64,000 nt of DNA from a virus (taxonomy: Duplodnaviria > Caudoviricetes), in the IMG/VR virus record IMGVR_UViG_3300036762_000188. One strand, 5' to 3'. A model generated the notes under the pieces. The model saw only the letters and a list, made by a program, of their open reading frames with translations. It was not told where the DNA came from and ran no database searches. Position numbers and translations under genes: made by a program. Every line of letters begins with the position of its first letter. Position 1 is the stretch's first letter. Shown in pieces: positions 2,032 to 52,659 of the stretch.

Positions 2032-2337
2032 CAACTAGATTTAGGTGTAAGTTCTGGGAGGTAGGCTTAGAAGCAGCCATCCTTTAAAGAGTAGGGTCTT
2101 TGCTCCTTGTGACAAAATAGCAACTCGAAGTACTTGAATTAGAGTTGTGAAAGTTGAACTAACCTCTATCCACTGATCACGGTAAGTTAGTTAAACGAGT
2201 TGCGTGGAGGTATAGTACCAAAGAGCTAGTAAGAACCTGTGAAATGACATAGGCATAGCGTGAGCGGTAGAAGTCATACCCGCCTAGCCGCCCTTTTGGT
2301 GTAACAACACACCAGAGCTTACACCTAAATCTAGTTG
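2032..2337 (+). ncRNA. structured RNA containing a split 23S rRNA H43/H44 (uL11-binding, GTPase-associated centre) mimic
   Basis: 26-bp closing stem 2032-2057/2312-2337 with one G-U; GGAGGTAGGCTTAGAAGCAGCCATCCTTTAAAGAG at 2057-2091 and GTGTAACAACACACCAG at 2299-2315; no long ORF. Confidence 0.8.
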
Positions 2338-2391
2338 GAAACCACGTATTAAAAGGCAGCGCTGTCCGCTTTGAATTATTTATTGTTGCTC
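2336..2391 (+). repeat. attC-like site 0
   Basis: AAC...GTCCGCTTTGAA...GTTGCTC. Confidence 0.5.
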
Positions 2392-2406
2392 TTGAGGGTA
2401 AGGATT

Positions 2407-2577
2407 ATGAAATATACAGAATGTAAACACGGGAACAAAGGCGCGAATTGCTTAGAGTGCATAACTGAATTTGAAATTGAACTTAAAAATGTATTTAAGA
2501 AAGGAGAACAGGTAAATAAAGTAAAAAGGCAGGCAGTAGTCGAATCACAGTACCGCGCAAATAAACGGCGCTGGTGA
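2407..2577 (+). CDS. cassette-borne small Cys/His protein
   Basis: ATG after AAGGA; CKH...CLEC. Confidence 0.55.
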   Translation: MKYTECKHGNKGANCLECITEFEIELKNVFKKGEQVNKVKRQAVVESQYRANKRRW

Positions 2578-2645
2578 GCAACCCAGAGTTAGTTTGCAGA
2601 ACGAAGCGGGGTGTAGAAATGTCAGAATTGAACGACTTGTTATCT
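2576..2645 (+). repeat. attC-like site 1
   Basis: GAGCAAC (2576-2582) is the exact reverse complement of the cassette start GTTGCTC (2385-2391); site ends in GTTATCT. Confidence 0.75.
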
Positions 2646-2906
2646 GTGATTGAGCCACAACCCCGAGGCATTAAATATATGCTTGGTGGTGAATCATGGA
2701 TGGATGAAAAAGACCAAAGCCCGATCAGACTTAATTGTGAAGAATGGGGCAATCTAGGGCCGATGGAACTAAACCCAGAGATAGAGCCTAATAAGGCCGG
2801 ACTTCGGGTCAAGTGTACGGAAACTATAGCACCAGAAAATGCCAGAGGTTTTACGGTAGTTGATGGTATTTATTATTGGACTAGATCAAGCGTGTGGGAT
2901 AGATAA
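2619..2906 (+). CDS. cassette-borne hypothetical protein
   Basis: Likely start MSELNDLLS lies within the right arm of the attC-like site. Confidence 0.55.
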   Translation: MSELNDLLSVIEPQPRGIKYMLGGESWMDEKDQSPIRLNCEEWGNLGPMELNPEIEPNKAGLRVKCTETIAPENARGFTVVDGIYYWTRSSVWDR

Positions 2907-2948
2907 CCCTTGCCATAAACGGCGGGTGAAGTCATAATGGGATTATAC
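2901..2948 (+). repeat. attC-like site 2 (shortened)
   Basis: AGATAAC is the exact reverse complement of GTTATCT (2639-2645); site ends in ATTATAC. Confidence 0.65.
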
Positions 2949-2963
2949 ACCAAGGAAGGTAGC

Positions 2964-3179
2964 ATGAATACGATTGATTTTTGTTTTTGGTTGCAAGGAT
3001 ATTTTGAAATTAGTGGTGATACTGAAATCACGAAAGAGCAGGTACAGGTCATCAAAGATCATTTGAGTCTTGTTTTTAAGCATGAGATTGACCCGTTGCG
3101 AGAGAAGCAGACTACTACACCTGCCAGCGTTTTAAATGCCGCGCATTCGCCGGTCAATGATATGCAGATTCGGTGCTAG
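2964..3179 (+). CDS. cassette-borne phage-type hypothetical protein
   Basis: RBS AAGGAAGG; FCFWLQGYFE...IKDHLSLVF pattern familiar from small phage proteins. Confidence 0.7.
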   Translation: MNTIDFCFWLQGYFEISGDTEITKEQVQVIKDHLSLVFKHEIDPLREKQTTTPASVLNAAHSPVNDMQIRC

Positions 3180-3181
3180 AC

Positions 3182-3233
3182 GTATAACCCAGAGCTTCGC
3201 CGAAGTGAGGTCTGAAACAGTGAACTGTTAGTT
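3182..3233 (+). repeat. attC-like site 3
   Basis: GTATAAC...GTTAGTT; GTATAAC pairs with ATTATAC (2942-2948) at 6/7. Confidence 0.7.
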
Positions 3234-3252
3234 CTTATCAAAAGGGTGATTT

Positions 3253-3447
3253 ATGAAGAAAGGTAAGGGTGGTCGTTGTAATTTAACAGCGTGCCAAACA
3301 CCGGAGGAGCCGGCTGAATGGTATAATCATGGCAGCCGCGCTTATTACTGTGAAGGTTGCGCAAAGATGCTGAATGAAGACCCGTTTAATAAGCGCGATG
3401 CCCAGGAAATGTTTGGGCATCCTCTTTGCACAATAGAAGAAACGTAA
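3253..3447 (+). CDS. cassette-borne Cys-rich hypothetical protein
   Basis: CNLTAC...YYCEGC putative zinc ligands. Confidence 0.7.
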   Translation: MKKGKGGRCNLTACQTPEEPAEWYNHGSRAYYCEGCAKMLNEDPFNKRDAQEMFGHPLCTIEET

Positions 3448-3498
3448 CCCAGGTTTGCTGTGAGCCACGGCGATTATCTAACCAGTGAATTGTTAGTT
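3442..3498 (+). repeat. attC-like site 4
   Basis: Stop codon lies within TAAC; shares CAGTGAAxTGTTAGTTC with site 3. Confidence 0.7.
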
Positions 3499-3517
3499 CA
3501 CGAAATGAGGATTAGTT

Positions 3518-3721
3518 ATGAATAGAATAGTAATTGACGCGGATGTTGTATGGCCTATTTCAATCGGTATGGTTCTCATAGTGCTGATAATTAATGTGAC
3601 AAGTTGTTCTGAGAAATTTAATCAACTAAAGCACGATGAAACGGTACTATACCTTAATAAAGGGTGTGAGCGAACTATTGTTGCCGGTGGTCCAGGTACA
3701 CATTGGATCTGTACCAAGTGA
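3518..3721 (+). CDS. cassette-borne small membrane protein
   Basis: One hydrophobic segment; GAGG RBS. Confidence 0.65.
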   Translation: MNRIVIDADVVWPISIGMVLIVLIINVTSCSEKFNQLKHDETVLYLNKGCERTIVAGGPGTHWICTK

Positions 3722-3770
3722 AATAACCCACAAACAGAGGCGAAGCCTGGCTTTATGCGCTTGTTAGTAG
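3718..3770 (+). repeat. attC-like site 5
   Basis: GTGAAATAAC pairs 9/10 with GTTAGTTCAC (3492-3501); site ends in GTTAGTAG. Confidence 0.7.
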
Positions 3771-3788
3771 CCTAACCGTAGAGATGAA

Positions 3789-4043
3789 ATGGAAAGAAAA
3801 GAATTCATTAAAAAGTATGGTGAGGTCGAGGTTACCTTCTCTCATTACTATAAATACACATTTACTTTTACTGGAGTCCTAGAAAATGGGAGTATTATAA
3901 GTGTGGATATTGGCGGTAACGCTGATGATATTTATCGCGAAGAGGTTAGTAATGATGAGAAACAAGTGATTTCACATTTAGAGCCGTATGCCGGGCGAGT
4001 TTATAATCAAGGCAAAGAAGTGCATAGTTTCTACGACTACTGA
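3789..4043 (+). CDS. cassette-borne hypothetical protein
   Basis: 84-aa ORF between attC-like sites. Confidence 0.7.
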   Translation: MERKEFIKKYGEVEVTFSHYYKYTFTFTGVLENGSIISVDIGGNADDIYREEVSNDEKQVISHLEPYAGRVYNQGKEVHSFYDY

Positions 4044-4091
4044 CAAAGAGCTTGCGTACCGCAGGTCACGCAGAATGAAGTGTTATTTCAC
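4037..4091 (+). repeat. attC-like site 6
   Basis: CTACTGAC pairs 7/8 with GTTAGTAG (3763-3770); site ends in GTTATTTCAC. Confidence 0.65.
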
Positions 4092-4108
4092 GAACTGAGG
4101 ATATCTAG

Positions 4109-5137
4109 ATGCATACACTTAAACTTTTGAAGGAATCAGGCTTAGACGGTCTATACCGTCTGGGCATCAGGCCTGTTAAGAGAGACGGGCTTATACTCTT
4201 GAATTATAGTCAAGTGGAAAGTCCTAAGTTTCACCCCGTAGTAAATGAATGTCGTAGCCTACTCTTAACAGAGGACTTACAATTAGTAAGCCGCAGCTTC
4301 GACAGATTTTATAATCATAGTCAAGTAGACTCTTCAGAGGATATATCTGATTGTGATGTTTTTGAGAAGATGGATGGTTCTCTTCTGAATATGTACTACC
4401 ATAACGGATGGAAGTATAGATTAAGTGGATCCCTGGATCTTAACCATGGAGTATGGGATCCTACCGGTCTAGACAGTACTACATGGAAAGACTACGTCAA
4501 TAAATGTATGGCTGACGCGCCTCTGCATCTGGCTAATGATCGTGATTGCACTTATATATTTGAGATAGTCGGTAAGAGTAATAAGATAGTAGTGCAGTAC
4601 CCTGAAGCTGATTATAGGCTACTAGCTGTACGGCATAGAGACGGGCGTTATATGCCTATACCTGAGGGTTTTAAACGCCCGCGCAGTTATAAATTCAGTA
4701 CATTAACGGAATGTGTACAGGCTGCTAACTCATTACCTAACCTAGAAGAAGGCTTCGTTATATATAAAGACGGCCCGATTTTAAAGGTCAAAAGTGACGT
4801 CTATATAAAGAGTCATCATATGCGCTTCAATGATATAAGCGCTCGTAGGGTGATGGACATGGTTGTAGAAGGTGATTATGATGAGTACCTCTCGGTATTC
4901 GCAGAACATAAACCTATGTTCGAGCCTTTTATACAAGCTGTAGAGCGTATGAGGCTTGATATGATCAGGCTTAAAGCGGAGAGTGAAGGTTATACTACTC
5001 AGGAATTGAGTAGAATGTATTCTGGAGTAGAACTTTCCATGATATGGTGGGTTAGAAGTGATCGCTCTATATATGAGAATCTAAAAAGTTCAAAGCCTAA
5101 TGCGCGCATTCGTTTATTTAAACATTACATGGAGTAG
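4109..5137 (+). CDS. rnlA: T4 Rnl1-like RNA ligase
   Basis: ECRSL, FDRFYN, motif I EKMDGSL, FE, EEGFVI, KVKS; followed by PNKP. Confidence 0.9.
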   Translation: MHTLKLLKESGLDGLYRLGIRPVKRDGLILLNYSQVESPKFHPVVNECRSLLLTEDLQLVSRSFDRFYNHSQVDSSEDISDCDVFEKMDGSLLNMYYHNGWKYRLSGSLDLNHGVWDPTGLDSTTWKDYVNKCMADAPLHLANDRDCTYIFEIVGKSNKIVVQYPEADYRLLAVRHRDGRYMPIPEGFKRPRSYKFSTLTECVQAANSLPNLEEGFVIYKDGPILKVKSDVYIKSHHMRFNDISARRVMDMVVEGDYDEYLSVFAEHKPMFEPFIQAVERMRLDMIRLKAESEGYTTQELSRMYSGVELSMIWWVRSDRSIYENLKSSKPNARIRLFKHYME

Positions 5138-5139
5138 AT

Positions 5140-5973
5140 ATGATAACATTAACGGTAGGGATACCGGGTAGCGGTAAGAGCACTTGGGCTAAAAAACAAG
5201 ATGCAGTAGAAGTTAACAGGGATATGATACGTAAATCACTATTCTGTAATGGTGATACAGACGCCATGTTTGAGTATCGGTTCACTTCAGATAAAGAGGG
5301 TATAGTCACTGCCACCTCTGTAGCGGCAGTATCTAGTGCAGTATCTGTCGGTAGGGATGTGATAGTGTCGGATACTAATTTAGTAGCCTCGACTAGGGAT
5401 AGGTATAAACTGTTGGCTAAAAACCTGGGAGTAGATTATAAGGAAGTAGTCTTCCCTGACATCGATAAGGCGTTTAAACGTAACCTACAACGCTCTATCC
5501 CGGTACCTATGCAGGTGATGTTGAATATGTATAGGCTATTCCGCCAGTATGAAGGAAGGACACCTTATACACCTGGAGCAGATCCTTGTATCATCTGTGA
5601 TCTGGACGGTACTCTGTATGACATGAACGGTCGCAGTCCTTACGCTGACGATGTGTCAGGTGATTTAGTAAACGAGGTGATACTGAACTTACTTCGTAAG
5701 GTAGAATACCCTATCATCCTCATGTCTGGTCGTAAGGAATCGGCCCGGGCTAGCACCGAGGCTAAGCTGGCAGAGGATGGTGTAGAATATGAGCGACTCA
5801 TAATGCGTGCTACTAGTGATAATAGGCCTGATTATATAGTTAAGGAAGATCTTTTTGATACGCACCTGTCTGATAGGGATGTATGGTTTATCTTAGACGA
5901 CAGGGCTCAGGTAGTTAACATGTGGAGGGCTAAGGGGCTTACATGCTTTCAAGTCGCAGATGGATATTTCTGA
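5140..5973 (+). CDS. pseT: polynucleotide 5'-kinase/3'-phosphatase
   Basis: GIPGSGKST, NRDMIR, SDTNL, HAD motif DLDGT, DDR, FQVA. Confidence 0.93.
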   Translation: MITLTVGIPGSGKSTWAKKQDAVEVNRDMIRKSLFCNGDTDAMFEYRFTSDKEGIVTATSVAAVSSAVSVGRDVIVSDTNLVASTRDRYKLLAKNLGVDYKEVVFPDIDKAFKRNLQRSIPVPMQVMLNMYRLFRQYEGRTPYTPGADPCIICDLDGTLYDMNGRSPYADDVSGDLVNEVILNLLRKVEYPIILMSGRKESARASTEAKLAEDGVEYERLIMRATSDNRPDYIVKEDLFDTHLSDRDVWFILDDRAQVVNMWRAKGLTCFQVADGYF

Positions 5974-9269: not shown

Positions 9270-9461
9270 GTGGTATGTTACATAGACCTAGGAGACACTT
9301 ACTTCTACATAAGTGACGTCGGTACTGTAAATAAAGAGACTTACGAGAGAACTGCTGCAGACTGTTACAGGCTTGCCACAGGTAATACTTACTGTAGCCG
9401 TGAAGAGGCGGAGTCTTATATGATAGATGACATACGTAAAAAATATGAGGGTATTGTATGA
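9270..9461 (+). CDS. hypothetical protein (RxxTGN family member 3)
   Basis: YFYI...RLATGNTY. Confidence 0.65.
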   Translation: MVCYIDLGDTYFYISDVGTVNKETYERTAADCYRLATGNTYCSREEAESYMIDDIRKKYEGIV

Positions 9462-9501
9462 AGATAGAACTGAGAGCCCGTACTATAGTGAGAGGTGGTC
9501 T

Positions 9502-10398
9502 ATGAGATTAATAGGTATGACGCCTACCGGCGTTCCGCACTTAGGTCACTACGTAAGCATCCTGCGTAATCCACAGGACTCACTATGCTTAGTAGCAGAC
9601 TATCACGCTATGGTTAAAGGATCTACTGACCTACTAGGTAACAGTCGGGTGCTTCACGCAGCCTTCGAGGCGACAGGCGCTGATCCTACCAAAATCTACA
9701 CTCAGTCCAGTATACCAGAGGTCTTGGAGTTATATTGGATCCTCAACTGCATGACCCCTAAGGGTATGCTCAACCGCTCACATGCTTACGTCAGCGCCCT
9801 ACAGGGTGATCAGGGTCGTATACAGGCTGGTCTCTTCAATTATCCAGTGCTCATGGCTGCAGACATCCTGTTAGTCAATGCGGATACGGTAGTAATAGGG
9901 CGCGATCAGTTATCCCATATGGAGTTAGCAGCCTTCTTAGCTAACCGCTTCAACAAACGCTACGGCGAGGTGTTCCGCGTACCCGCGTATGAGGTAACTG
10001 ATATACTTCCCGGCAGGGATGGGTTGAAGATGGGTAAGAGCGCCGGTAATAGTATACCGCTGTTCTCTTCACCCGAGCAATTGCTTAAGGATATCAAAGG
10101 TATTAAGACGGATAGTAGACTCCCAGGGGAGCCTAAGGATCTTATACCTATCTTCGACTTGTGGAAGGCCTTCGCTACCGAGGAGCAGACGGAGGAGATG
10201 CGGGTAGCCTTCAGAGAGGGTATAGGCTGGGGTGACTTTAAGGTCAAGCTATTCAACCTTATTAACGATGAAATCAAGGACGCACGCGAGCGATACTATG
10301 AGCTAATGAATAAGCCATATCAGCCAGTAAACGACGTGTATTATACTGCACGCAGTACCTTAGATAAAGTCAAAGAGCTAGTATGGAGTAAGACATGA
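9502..10398 (+). CDS. trpS: tryptophanyl-tRNA synthetase
   Basis: PTGVPHLGHY (HIGH), ADYHA, YPVLMAADIL, GRDQ, KMGKS; start chosen after GAGGTGG. Confidence 0.92.
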   Translation: MRLIGMTPTGVPHLGHYVSILRNPQDSLCLVADYHAMVKGSTDLLGNSRVLHAAFEATGADPTKIYTQSSIPEVLELYWILNCMTPKGMLNRSHAYVSALQGDQGRIQAGLFNYPVLMAADILLVNADTVVIGRDQLSHMELAAFLANRFNKRYGEVFRVPAYEVTDILPGRDGLKMGKSAGNSIPLFSSPEQLLKDIKGIKTDSRLPGEPKDLIPIFDLWKAFATEEQTEEMRVAFREGIGWGDFKVKLFNLINDEIKDARERYYELMNKPYQPVNDVYYTARSTLDKVKELVWSKT

Positions 10399-11234
10399 AG
10401 AATTACTTAGACTTAATACACTACGTTAAAGATAACGGCCGTACCGCCCAGACCCGTAGCGGTGAGACCCTGCGCGTATTTGATTACAAGCTAGAATACG
10501 ACGTGCGCTATGGCTTCCCTGCAGTAACTACTAAACGACTACCGTTCAACCTTATATCCGGGGAGCTACTCTGGTTCCTTAACGGCTATACCACCCTGCG
10601 TAGCCTCAGAAGGCTCTCAGGGCTCGCAGAGGACGCGCGGACCATCTGGACTGATGATTACCTTAGATGGAGCGCTGGAAGCTCTGAGCGCCCTCTCAAC
10701 GACCCTCAGGACCTAGGTAAGCTGTATGGGTACCAGTGGCGTCGTGGGGTGGATCAGGTAGCCCGTCTGGTCGATACCATACAGAAGGATCCTACTAGCC
10801 GCTACCTACGTGTGGAAGCCTGGAATCCAGAGACGGTAGTTAACGGCGAGGCTGCCCTACCGCCCTGCCACACCGGCTTCACAGTATTCGTAGAGGATGG
10901 ATATCTAGATCTTAAATGGCGCCAGCGCTCTGTAGACGTGTTCCTCGGACTGCCCTTTAACATAGCCAGCTACGCGCTGCTACTACACATACTAGCCAGT
11001 ATCACTGGGCTAATCCCGCGCCGACTCATAGGCGATCTGGACGACGTGCATATTTACACGGCTCACATGAGCGCAGTGGATGAGCAGTTAGCCCGTACCC
11101 CTAAGGCTCTACCCACCCTGGTCATGCCGGAAATACCCTCCCTCCTCAGTGTAACTGATCTAACCTGCCATGACTTCAGATTAGACGGCTATGAACCACA
11201 TCCTACTATAAAAGCCCCTCTACTGGTAGGATAA
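10395..11234 (+). CDS. thyA: thymidylate synthase
   Basis: TTKR, ELLWFL, LPPCH, QRSVDVFLGLPFNIASY, HIY. Confidence 0.96.
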   Translation: MKNYLDLIHYVKDNGRTAQTRSGETLRVFDYKLEYDVRYGFPAVTTKRLPFNLISGELLWFLNGYTTLRSLRRLSGLAEDARTIWTDDYLRWSAGSSERPLNDPQDLGKLYGYQWRRGVDQVARLVDTIQKDPTSRYLRVEAWNPETVVNGEAALPPCHTGFTVFVEDGYLDLKWRQRSVDVFLGLPFNIASYALLLHILASITGLIPRRLIGDLDDVHIYTAHMSAVDEQLARTPKALPTLVMPEIPSLLSVTDLTCHDFRLDGYEPHPTIKAPLLVG

Positions 11235-41141: not shown

Positions 41142-41494
41142 AGCTTACCTATCATATGTGAGTCATTTATCTCTGCATTATACTTAACTCTACCTAGTAT
41201 AACTTGGTTTTCCGATATAGAGTCTGCGAATATAGCAGCACGTGAAGTGTGGTATAGACCCCTCTCTTTGATAAAGGATATCGCATCATAGTATGATTTC
41301 AAGAGAGCCATCTCAAATATACTAGGCCTGTTAGACGCCACTGCACTTATAAGGGCCTCTACTTCGTTTAGCGATGGTACTACTACATCGGCCGGTTCTT
41401 TAGGAGGGGTGCCGTCTGTTGCGTATAATCCTACACTCTCCATTAGAGAGTATAGGTTACGATAGAATTCATTCAGGTCTTGAGTAACCATCAT
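41138..41494 (-). CDS. hypothetical protein
   Basis: Start MMVTQ after GGAGG. Confidence 0.55.
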   Translation of the reverse strand: MMVTQDLNEFYRNLYSLMESVGLYATDGTPPKEPADVVVPSLNEVEALISAVASNRPSIFEMALLKSYYDAISFIKERGLYHTSRAAIFADSISENQVILGRVKYNAEINDSHMIGKL

Positions 41495-42185
41495 ATTCCT
41501 CCAGTAAACCACGTACTTTATTAACCAGTTTACGGTGGGAGTAATTGAGCTTATTAACATCCATACCGTGGACGCTACTCATCTCTTCTTGCGACAAGCC
41601 TTTGAATCGGCTATCCAATAGACTCCTCTCCTCATCAGTAAGACTGCTACGTACGTGGTTCATTCTAGTAGCGTCATCTGAGTACTCCGACGCAGCACCT
41701 AGGTATTCCAAGTTACCCTCATGAACGTCCTGGTATAGGTTAGACTGAAAATCAGTAACCTCCTTCTCCTTCCAGCCTAGTCTGAGAGCCAGCTCTGCAG
41801 GCGTAGGCTCCTTAAGAAGTTCAGACGATAGATCATCATAAGCTTTTTTGTAGTACTTAAATTGACCCTGTTGCTTAGCCTCTGACATACGCACTACGTT
41901 CTGGTACGTATAGTTAAGCCTGGAAGCCTGGGCTATATGGTTAAACACGTGTGTACTTAACTTAGCCCCTTTAGAGGGATCATATGAGTCTATAGCCGAC
42001 GCAGCATGCTTAGCTATCTCCGCCTTCAGGGCGCTATCCGGTAGTGATCCAGCTAGTGCCTTGAACTTCTTCTGCAATATAGGATGTAGAGCCATTACTA
42101 GACGTGTTCGATCTTTTTTAGATCCAGATTTTAGATATTGATCATATATCTCATCTTCTTGGTAGTTAGCCACTATAAACTCCAT
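41469..42185 (-). CDS. sigma-70-family (FliA/SigF-like) sigma factor
   Basis: AIDSYDPSKGAKLSTH (region 2), EPTPAELALRLG (region 3), LTDEER...GLSQEEM (region 4). Confidence 0.82.
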   Translation of the reverse strand: MEFIVANYQEDEIYDQYLKSGSKKDRTRLVMALHPILQKKFKALAGSLPDSALKAEIAKHAASAIDSYDPSKGAKLSTHVFNHIAQASRLNYTYQNVVRMSEAKQQGQFKYYKKAYDDLSSELLKEPTPAELALRLGWKEKEVTDFQSNLYQDVHEGNLEYLGAASEYSDDATRMNHVRSSLTDEERSLLDSRFKGLSQEEMSSVHGMDVNKLNYSHRKLVNKVRGLLEEYDGYSRPE

Positions 42186-52618: not shown

Positions 52619-52659
52619 ATACTGTCCTTTTTTAAGTATGATAATTACCTATATTTTAT

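Follow-up and report, generated by a model that had tools for sequence, protein, structure and literature searches.

We analyzed a 64,000-nt stretch (hereafter the window) of the genome of an uncultured lytic phage (149 kb; IMG/VR record IMGVR_UViG_3300036762_000188), in whose accessory early region six small co-oriented open reading frames (ORFs), U1-U6, are separated by short spacers (Table 1). Positions 2345-4091 of the window are probably a relic array of six single-gene cassettes of the integron type without an integrase, that is, a CALIN (cluster of attC sites lacking an integron integrase). An integron-type origin, already proposed in a preliminary description of this DNA, is supported by a complementarity rule followed by the cassettes of related phages, by the homology of the window spacers to the sites of these phages, by the recombination of such sites from Pseudoalteromonas phage H101 by the integrase IntI1, and by the sharing of the U4 cassette between otherwise unrelated genomes. 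Integron-type arrays in lytic phages have been known since 2023, and the array in the window would be a decayed example.

In the proposed scenario, each spacer is a diverged, shorter version of an attC-like hairpin site, which is intact in other marine phages and has the form nnnATAAC - imperfect stem-loop - (T)TGTTATnnn. Each cassette of the family would be a circularizable unit, in which the three bases after GTTAT, 5' of the ORF, would pair with the three bases before ATAAC, at the stop codon, and the circles would be cut and joined at one fixed point of a folded single strand. The folded strand may be the coding strand with a crossover (T)AA|C on the stop codon, which would make spacer plus ORF the mobile unit, and a host integron integrase would carry out the recombination during infection. 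The window sites would since have lost most of the hairpin and several core bases, and the array would now change through illegitimate or short-homology deletion.

Intact sites and the cassette rule in related phages

Clusters of attC sites were described in virulent phages, including H101, by Qi et al. (2023; PMC9892861). The cloned H101 sites read ...ATAAC - hairpin - CTTGTTAT..., the frequencies at which IntI1 recombined H101 attC1 and attC2 with attI1 did not differ from that of attCaadA7, and the junctions lay at the R box. We located four such sites in phage H101 (L003). Further members came from metagenome contigs, of which L012/L013 and L014 in IMG/VR were found by the spacer pattern and L006-L011 via homologs of U4. 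A scan of IMG/VR with the pattern GCGTAGCGA-N(8-38)-TTGTTAT gave at least 119 mostly single matches, which were judged probably due to chance and were not used. The spacers of H101, L006, L007, L012/L013 and L014 constitute one family of the form nnnATAAC...GTTATnnn, with ATAAC and TGTTAT invariant over 16 sites; a central GCGTAGCGA motif is common to H101 and several sites of L006, L007 and L013. RNAalifold predicted no pairs on a MAFFT alignment of 16 sites because the variable stems were misaligned.

The cassette rule was counted on 13 units bounded by two family sites in H101, L006, L007, L013 and L014. The GTTATnnn start is the reverse complement of the unit's own nnnATAAC end in eight of these units and is one base off in the other five. 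The variable triplets are complementary at 34 of 39 positions, and none of 100,000 permutations was as good (p<1e-5). The two boxes of one and the same spacer match at just 5-6 of 8 positions in most cases, compared with 7-8 of 8 for the start and end of the same unit. Such complementarity is expected if the units were circles with a fixed cut, the stem of the site being closed by both ends.

A ~57-nt site, the E1 type, occurs at L006 4919-4980, L013 4027-4088, L014 5187-5248 and L007 46-106, and is 94-100% identical among contigs whose flanking genes are unrelated. Its hairpin has G-U pairs on the coding strand only. In L006 (5251-5579) and L007 (372-697), two unrelated 99-aa ORFs have both their start box GTTATTGC and their end box GCAATAAC in common, which reflects either a coincidence among few triplets or the replacement of a gene inside a cassette frame. 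Contig L012 belongs to a complete 39-kb phage genome with terminal repeats, to which the fragment L013 is 99.9% identical. In L013, genes for an O-like replication initiator and for a DnaB-like helicase (333-2674) are followed by the array at 3319-4338, which is where lambdoid phages have their nin-type accessory region; the complete phage presumably has the array at the same place of a lambdoid-like layout.

Kinship of the window spacers to the site family

All six spacers of the window (sites 1-6) align to sites of L006, L007, L013, L014 or H101 with scores above those of shuffled sequences (p<=0.005). Sites 1, 3, 4 and 6 match the highly conserved E1 type. Site 1 can be aligned over its whole length with L014_c and L006_b and scores 60.5 (shuffled sequences: mean 38.3, sd 3.9), site 4 aligns to L006_a (61.5; shuffle mean 35.2), and site 6 aligns to L006_b (50.5; shuffle mean 33.8). 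Positions 3181-3230, which include most of site 3, are ~79% identical to the E1-type sites of L012, L013 and L014; the alignment places an 8-nt internal deletion in the E1 hairpin of site 3. This deletion, together with site lengths of 48-70 bp, agrees with the preliminary description, in which the sites had been called shortened. The best family match of site 2 is H101_A (= PH101_attC2), with ~21 of 24 positions identical within the first 26 nt, and site 5 aligns to L007_a (p 0.005). The 3' half of the probable first site, site 0, resembles in our own reading the 3' half of the family site L013_b, and window 2371-2412 matches L007 361-402 at 81%.

The family alignments also bear on two gene starts. 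The boxes read at 2639 and 2942 fall inside the longest ORF calls of U2 and U3. They are the true family boxes, so that U2 and U3 probably begin at 2679 and 2964, respectively. The shorter start of U2 is favored because the alignment extends site 1 to 2645, and the ATG at 2679 is preceded at 11 nt by a GAGG. The shorter start of U3 is favored by the family alignments and because the match to its PHROG profile begins at residue 10. A GTTAGTT at 2588 was considered as the start box of U2 and rejected, since the alignment puts it inside site 1 and leaves 2639 as the true box.

The end box E5 (GTGAAATAAC, 3718-3727) is the exact reverse complement of S7 (GTTATTTCAC, 4082-4091), with 10 of 10 positions matching. 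This match may be the trace of an insertion of U6 into a once-intact E5...S7 site. A transposon-like reading, with terminal inverted repeats and target duplication, was discarded, as by eye no direct repeats flank the units.

Box pairs and spacer motifs within the window

The twelve start and end boxes listed in the preliminary description are all present where it had placed them (Table 1). The inverse core is AAC at five of the six ORF ends, the sixth being GAC, and GTT at six of the seven start boxes, S3 being ATT. The GAC at the end of U6 reads AAC in a second strain (L002, see below), which gives a perfect 10-mer pair, TTGTTAGTAG/CTACTAACAA (10/10). Exact partners of AAC-anchored 7-mers exist for 0.74% of the AAC sites in the window, and for 17% when one mismatch is allowed. 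The true pairing of starts and ends is the best of the 720 permutations under the first definition of the start window (p 0.0014), and a complementarity score reached by three to four of the six array units is reached by six of 87 other genes. In the window alone, the start/end complementarity is only weakly above chance. The R'/R'' self-complementarity put forward earlier as an integron signature is firm in the relatives (34/39), and within the window its p-value ranges from 0.0014 to 0.17, depending on how the start windows are defined. The observation of paired boxes in the array is itself confirmed. Terminal helices of the units form in RNA folds of the exact units and often vanish when 10-nt flanks are added, which makes this test uninformative.

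Common to the spacers are the motif (T)AACCCAG(AG), which lies at the stop codon, and a short hairpin rich in G and C. The 19-mer CAGTGAAnTGTTAGTTCAC is present in three copies in 64 kb, against 0.05 expected; all are in the array, where they precede U4, U5 and the RNA ligase gene. In four units, TGTTA sits 27-28 nt before the ATG, and a Shine-Dalgarno (SD)-like GAGG, GGGTG or GAGA follows 5-8 nt past the 11-nt box.

The U4 cassette and the position of the junctions

A homolog of U4 with 97% amino acid identity was found in L006-L011, in other gene contexts. In blastn (88% identity), L006 covers window 3180-3450 and L007 covers 3181-3450. The block shared with L006 consists of the spacer before U4, U4 itself and TAACCC, and it runs from one ATAAC box to the next. 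By tblastx, L006 and L007 have nothing in common with the whole window but the U4 cassette. L006 and L007 are identical over the upstream spacer and U4 and near-identical up to ATAACCCTA; past this point their spacers show many mismatches and a gap, and they lead to unrelated ORFs. The spacer following U4 differs among the window, L006 and L007, and from its different type in the window we infer a past deletion at the conserved TAACCC. Remoter U4 homologs (61-79% identity) are found in compact operons that have no sites, and are uninformative on junctions.

These contexts revise the preliminary description on two counts. The crossover had been drawn at G|TT, whereas the junctions seen in nature appear to fall on the AAC box that overlaps the stop codon; and each gene appears to be tied to the spacer upstream of it rather than to the one downstream. 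As ...AAC...GTT... is read on either strand of such a site, the cassette rule alone does not place the cut. A cassette may consist of the upstream spacer and the ORF, with a crossover (T)AA|C on the stop codon, which would be the reverse of bacterial integrons; on this polarity we are evenly divided. It is suggested by the edges of the U4 block, by the point at which L006 and L007 diverge, by the primers of Qi et al. and by the folds of the coding strand. In Qi et al. (PMC9892861), the Forward primers in the position of the aadA7 bottom strand correspond to the coding strand of the H101 ORFs; the color coding of the primer table was lost, so this strand assignment is our own interpretation. 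Folds of single-stranded DNA (ssDNA) are more stable for the coding strand in 13 of 17 relatives and in five of the six window sites, the difference being slight.

Probable decay of the window array

The preliminary description had proposed a folding check, and no attC-like fold of the window sites was found on either strand. Their folding energies are -3 to -5 kcal/mol with z ~0 on both strands, compared with -7.5 to -9.8 kcal/mol for the H101 sites used as positive controls. Bottom-strand ssDNA folds are no better than those of shuffled sequences, and forced pairing of the R boxes costs energy. Three of the window start boxes read GTTAG.

Strain L002, a Logan contig with 97-98% identity to the window, is without U4. 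Its junction, ...AGAGCTTCGCC|ACGGCG..., falls in the middle of a spacer, at 3 nt of microhomology (GCC; window 3199-3201 / 3466-3468) and ~25 nt upstream of the G|TT point proposed earlier, and the loss of U4 corresponds to a recombination between two adjacent E1-type spacers. Three end boxes are also altered in this strain: 2902 G>A breaks the U2 pair (E2/S2), the lack of one A at 3186 destroys the AAC of U3, and 4042 G>A completes the U6 pair. The array in the window is probably a relic in which active shuffling has ceased and change comes from ordinary recombination, since its sites are non-folding and are missed by a model built from H101 sites, site 3 is shortened, and the L002 deletion occurred at a microhomology. 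As to gene gain and loss at the crossover box, the U4 blocks end at ATAAC boxes, consistent with AA|C on the coding strand, the L002 indel does not, and no junction coincides with the G|TT point of the preliminary description. Judged by the window alone, both the boundaries and the fold speak against the cassette idea of the preliminary description, and the relatives rescue it.

Recombinase and host

The absence of a nearby integrase, noted in the preliminary description, was confirmed: no integrase-family match was found among the window ORFs tested, which included all those of 250-480 aa. PF00589 was not found in the complete H101 genome, in the complete 39-kb phage with terminal repeats or in two further fragments, by a search that detected it in 14 of 14 control genomes. 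None of the features of a complete integron, intI, attI and Pc, was found beside the array. Since no tyrosine recombinase was found to be encoded by these phages, we infer that the recombining enzyme is a host integron integrase acting during infection.

Evidence against an integron-type origin

Several results weigh against the scenario outlined above. The in-window statistics are borderline, with permutation p-values of 0.003-0.17 under neutral definitions of the start window. R boxes are paired in the minimum-energy ssDNA fold in none of the six window sites compared with 11 of 18 sites in the relatives (mean dG -4.4 and -8.0 kcal/mol, respectively), and a search of the window with a covariance model derived from four H101 sites gave no significant match (best E 3.2). 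The E1 type, although the commonest in the relatives, folds poorly as DNA, and its G-U pairs favor a hairpin at the RNA level. The only strain-level indel, that of L002, lies at neither R box, and the three end boxes that differ between the strains do so without a compensating change in the partner. The reversed polarity rests on one cassette in three contexts and on the reading of a primer table. Finally, a 22-nt E1 block is present in none of 185,579 bacterial species genomes, and thus no host integron with matching sites is known.

Alternative explanations

A motif found across the window bears a resemblance to one of the cassette boxes. TGTTATAAGTA is strongly over-represented on the + strand, at 639, 11246, 14465, 15008 (where it reads CGTTATAAGTA), 21698 and 35938, with a near-copy at 52659. 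Its core GTTATAAGTA has seven exact copies, all on the + strand and mostly 27-35 nt before a start codon, and copies of the motif often lie inside short dyads, for example GTTATA-AGTAA-TATAAC at 640. The TGTTAT core is common to this motif and to the GTT-side box of the cassette sites, at a similar distance from the ATG. At 41469-42185 on the - strand, a 238-aa ORF has a weak match to Sigma70_r3 (E 3e-5, just under the Pfam cut-off) and could encode a phage sigma-like factor that reads phage-specific promoters.

These observations can be accommodated if the spacers are regulatory cassettes resembling the promoter-early stem-loops (PeSLs) of T4-type phages, each combining a stem-loop that ends or stabilizes the upstream mRNA, a promoter-like TGTTA box and a ribosome-binding site. 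The genes would then be shuffled only by homologous or microhomology recombination, and the complementarity would reflect RNA pairing or be incidental. We consider this explanation unlikely, though to be taken seriously. The constant distance of TGTTA from the ATG in four units, the SD-like motif that follows the box, the core and geometry that the box shares with the + strand copies of TGTTATAAGTA, and the sigma-like ORF are all in line with it. Recombination between adjacent repeats would produce exactly the deletion seen in L002, the E1 hairpin has G-U pairs with the top-strand RNA being more stable in most of 19 sites, and arrays of six ORFs with indels are on record for PeSLs (PMC4122927). 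However, the spacers lack both a sigma-70-type -35/-10 pair and a U-tract terminator. A promoter scan of the spacers gave one 10/12 match (site 2), with counts at the level of shuffled sequences, and a terminator scan gave none on the + strand and one match on the - strand within site 6. The 19-mer CAGTGAAnTGTTAGTTCAC occurs nowhere else in 64 kb, and a box acting as a -10 element would lie outside its own transcript and thus could not pair there. Above all, such elements do not account for the unit-specific covariation of triplets ~200-550 nt apart in 13 units, nor for the recombination of the homologous H101 sites by IntI1. A purely regulatory reading, with the complementarity regarded as cherry-picked, was considered and rejected as the main explanation on the cassette data from the relatives. 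Regulatory and cassette functions may coexist, as a site upstream of an ORF could serve both.

It is rather improbable that an integron-like system is driven here by an unrecognized phage recombinase, either not of the PF00589 family or encoded beyond the DNA read. Three very different types of phages carry the site family and none has PF00589, the bacterial species genomes do not contain the E1 block, and the reversed polarity and the stop-codon crossover would be unlike those of bacterial integrons. Yet no candidate gene is conserved beside the arrays of the window, L006, L013, L014 and H101, and IntI1 alone suffices for the H101 sites in E. coli, according to Qi et al. (PMC9892861). Chance, by which ordinary intergenic regions would contain short complementary words without any mechanism, is hardly credible: the in-window permutation p of up to 0.17 and the 17% of AAC sites with a partner at one mismatch would allow it, but it fails to explain the homology to a conserved site family, the local enrichment of motifs, the rule in the relatives (p<1e-5) and the single gene shared between otherwise unrelated genomes.

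Within the integron-type reading, a broader and doubtful possibility is that unrelated marine lytic phages (the 39-kb lambdoid-like phage, the 132-kb H101 and the 149-kb phage of the window) share a pool of 'backwards' cassettes, with the attC-like site upstream of the gene and the crossover TAA|C on the stop codon, in which the TTGTTAT box would double as a promoter-type motif (TGTTATAAGTA in the window), and borrow the integrase of the host. Every cassette would then bring its own expression signal.

Genes of the array and their neighborhood

The six ORFs lie between a folded non-coding region (2027-2342) and a pair of genes at 4109-5973 that encode an RNA ligase and a polynucleotide kinase (PNK). 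They are mutually non-paralogous. Two of them, U3 and U4, fall into PHROG families without an assigned function, whose homologs are scattered over unrelated phages, those of U3 being found in Caulobacter, Rhizobium and Pseudomonas phages. The cargo is of the phage type, as had been supposed. Coordinates of the array features are collected in Table 1.

Table 1. Features of the cassette array and its flank in the window.
Feature	Position	Strand	Description
Site 0	2345-2391	+	Probable degenerate first site, ending in S1 GTTGCTC (2385-2391)
U1	2407-2577	+	56-aa Cys-rich ORF; called on Logan contigs L001 and L002; no PHROG match
Site 1	2576-2645	+	E1 GAGCAAC, spacer, S2 GTTATCT; E1-type member
U2	2679-2906	+	Likely start 2679; longest ATG call from 2619; site 1 reaches 2645
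Site 2	2901-2948	+	E2 AGATAAC, shortened spacer, S3 ATTATAC
U3	2964-3179	+	phrog_28500; likely start 2964, longest call from 2937
Site 3	3182-3233	+	E3 GTATAAC, E1-type spacer, S4 GTTAGTT
Inferred U4 cassette	3188-3447	+	C of AAC box, spacer, S4, ORF, stop TAA
Segment missing in L002	3202-3468	+	Deletion or insertion polymorphism
U4	3253-3447	+	64 aa, Cys-rich, phrog_13772; mobile cassette gene
Site 4	3441-3501	+	E4 AACGTAAC, E1-type spacer, S5 GTTAGTTCAC
U5	3518-3721	+	67 aa; N-terminal half hydrophobic by eye; no PHROG match
Site 5	3718-3770	+	E5 GTGAAATAAC, spacer, S6 (TT)GTTAGTAG
U6	3789-4043	+	84 aa; no PHROG match
Site 6	4037-4091	+	E6 CTACTGAC, E1-type spacer, S7 GTTATTTCAC
RNA ligase gene	4109-5137	+	Directly after site 6; RNA ligase and PNK both identified
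U1 box pair	2385 / 2576	+	GTTGCTC / GAGCAAC; exact complement
U2 box pair	2639 / 2901	+	GTTATCT / AGATAAC; 7/7
U3 box pair	2942 / 3182	+	ATTATAC / GTATAAC; 6/7
U4 box pair	3227 / 3441	+	GTTAGTT / AACGTAAC
U5 box pair	3492 / 3718	+	GTTAGTTCAC / GTGAAATAAC; 9/10
U6 box pair	3763 / 4037	+	GTTAGTAG / CTACTGAC; 7/8

Sequence comparison shows the phage to be an orphan: its RNA ligase reaches at best 40% identity to those of cultured relatives, and in a set of 5.8 billion proteins a 99% strain variant is followed by a next match at 43%. Close relatives of the region were found neither in INPHARED by megablast nor in IMG/VR via the RNA ligase protein or an exact 39-mer. Distant relatives have the RNA ligase adjoining or near PNK yet no such array, which argues that the array is lineage-specific.

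The non-coding region just upstream of the array (2027-2342) has 254 nt of hairpin-rich DNA between the arms of a 31-nt inverted repeat (90% complementary). Window 2046-2096 is a 90.6% match to an unannotated stretch of Pseudomonas phage pf16 and has no Rfam match. Rfam gave no match in the window at the gathering or E<=1 thresholds, and no tRNAs were found in the 64 kb. The early region also encodes, on the + strand, a homolog of class I Trp/Tyr-type aminoacyl-tRNA synthetases (9427-10398; PF00579, E 7e-40) and an adjoining thymidylate synthase (10395-11234).

Implications

If the proposed origin is true, the array shows large lytic phages gaining and swapping small accessory genes singly. 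The U4 unit, 260 bp long and with 88% DNA identity, is common to otherwise unrelated genomes and has its edges on defined site boxes. The kinship to H101 ties a computational finding to sites proven as integrase substrates, and the junctions indicate that phage arrays may run reversed relative to bacterial integrons. Decayed arrays consist of short non-folding spacers that structure-based attC finders probably miss; surveys based on such finders may therefore undercount phage cassette arrays.

Comparison with known systems

The PeSL/PmSL regulatory cassettes of T4-type phages (Arbiol et al. 2010, PMC2839356; Comeau et al. 2014, PMC4122927) resemble the window array in their repeated stem-loop and promoter-like spacers between small ORFans of a hyperplastic region, and in gene-sized indels between close strains via adjacent copies, as in the L002 deletion. 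In contrast to PeSLs, the window spacers are without a sigma-70 -35/-10 pair and without a terminator of GC-stem and U-tract. Neither covarying inverted words around ORFs nor a role as integrase substrate has been reported for PeSLs.

The attC arrays of H101 share with the window co-oriented small ORFs, sites of the form ...ATAAC - hairpin - TTGTTAT..., the lack of a phage integrase and a hypothetical phage-type cargo. Compared with H101, the sites of the window are shorter (48-70 bp), non-folding and missed by the H101-built model, and their boxes read GTTAG, GTTGC or ATTAT instead of GTTAT. The part of Qi et al. used here (PMC9892861) contains no description of cross-unit complementarity, of the link between a gene and its upstream site, or of cassette sharing by unrelated phages.

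Bacterial integrons, above all sedentary chromosomal ones with homogeneous attC sites such as the Vibrio VCR-type arrays, are similar to the phage arrays in their single-gene cassettes, in R''/R' core sites (...AAC / GTT...) and in the complementarity of a unit's own start and end. They differ in that the phage arrays are carried by lytic phages and lack intI, attI and Pc, and in that the phage genes appear to be oriented oppositely with respect to site polarity, each site preceding its gene and the crossover box overlapping the stop codon. The integron core-site consensus is RYYYAAC/GTTRRRY, from which the phage core ATAAC/GTTAT departs at some positions. The homogeneity of VCR-like sites is matched by the phage E1 type, which is nearly identical (95-100%) on many unrelated genes.

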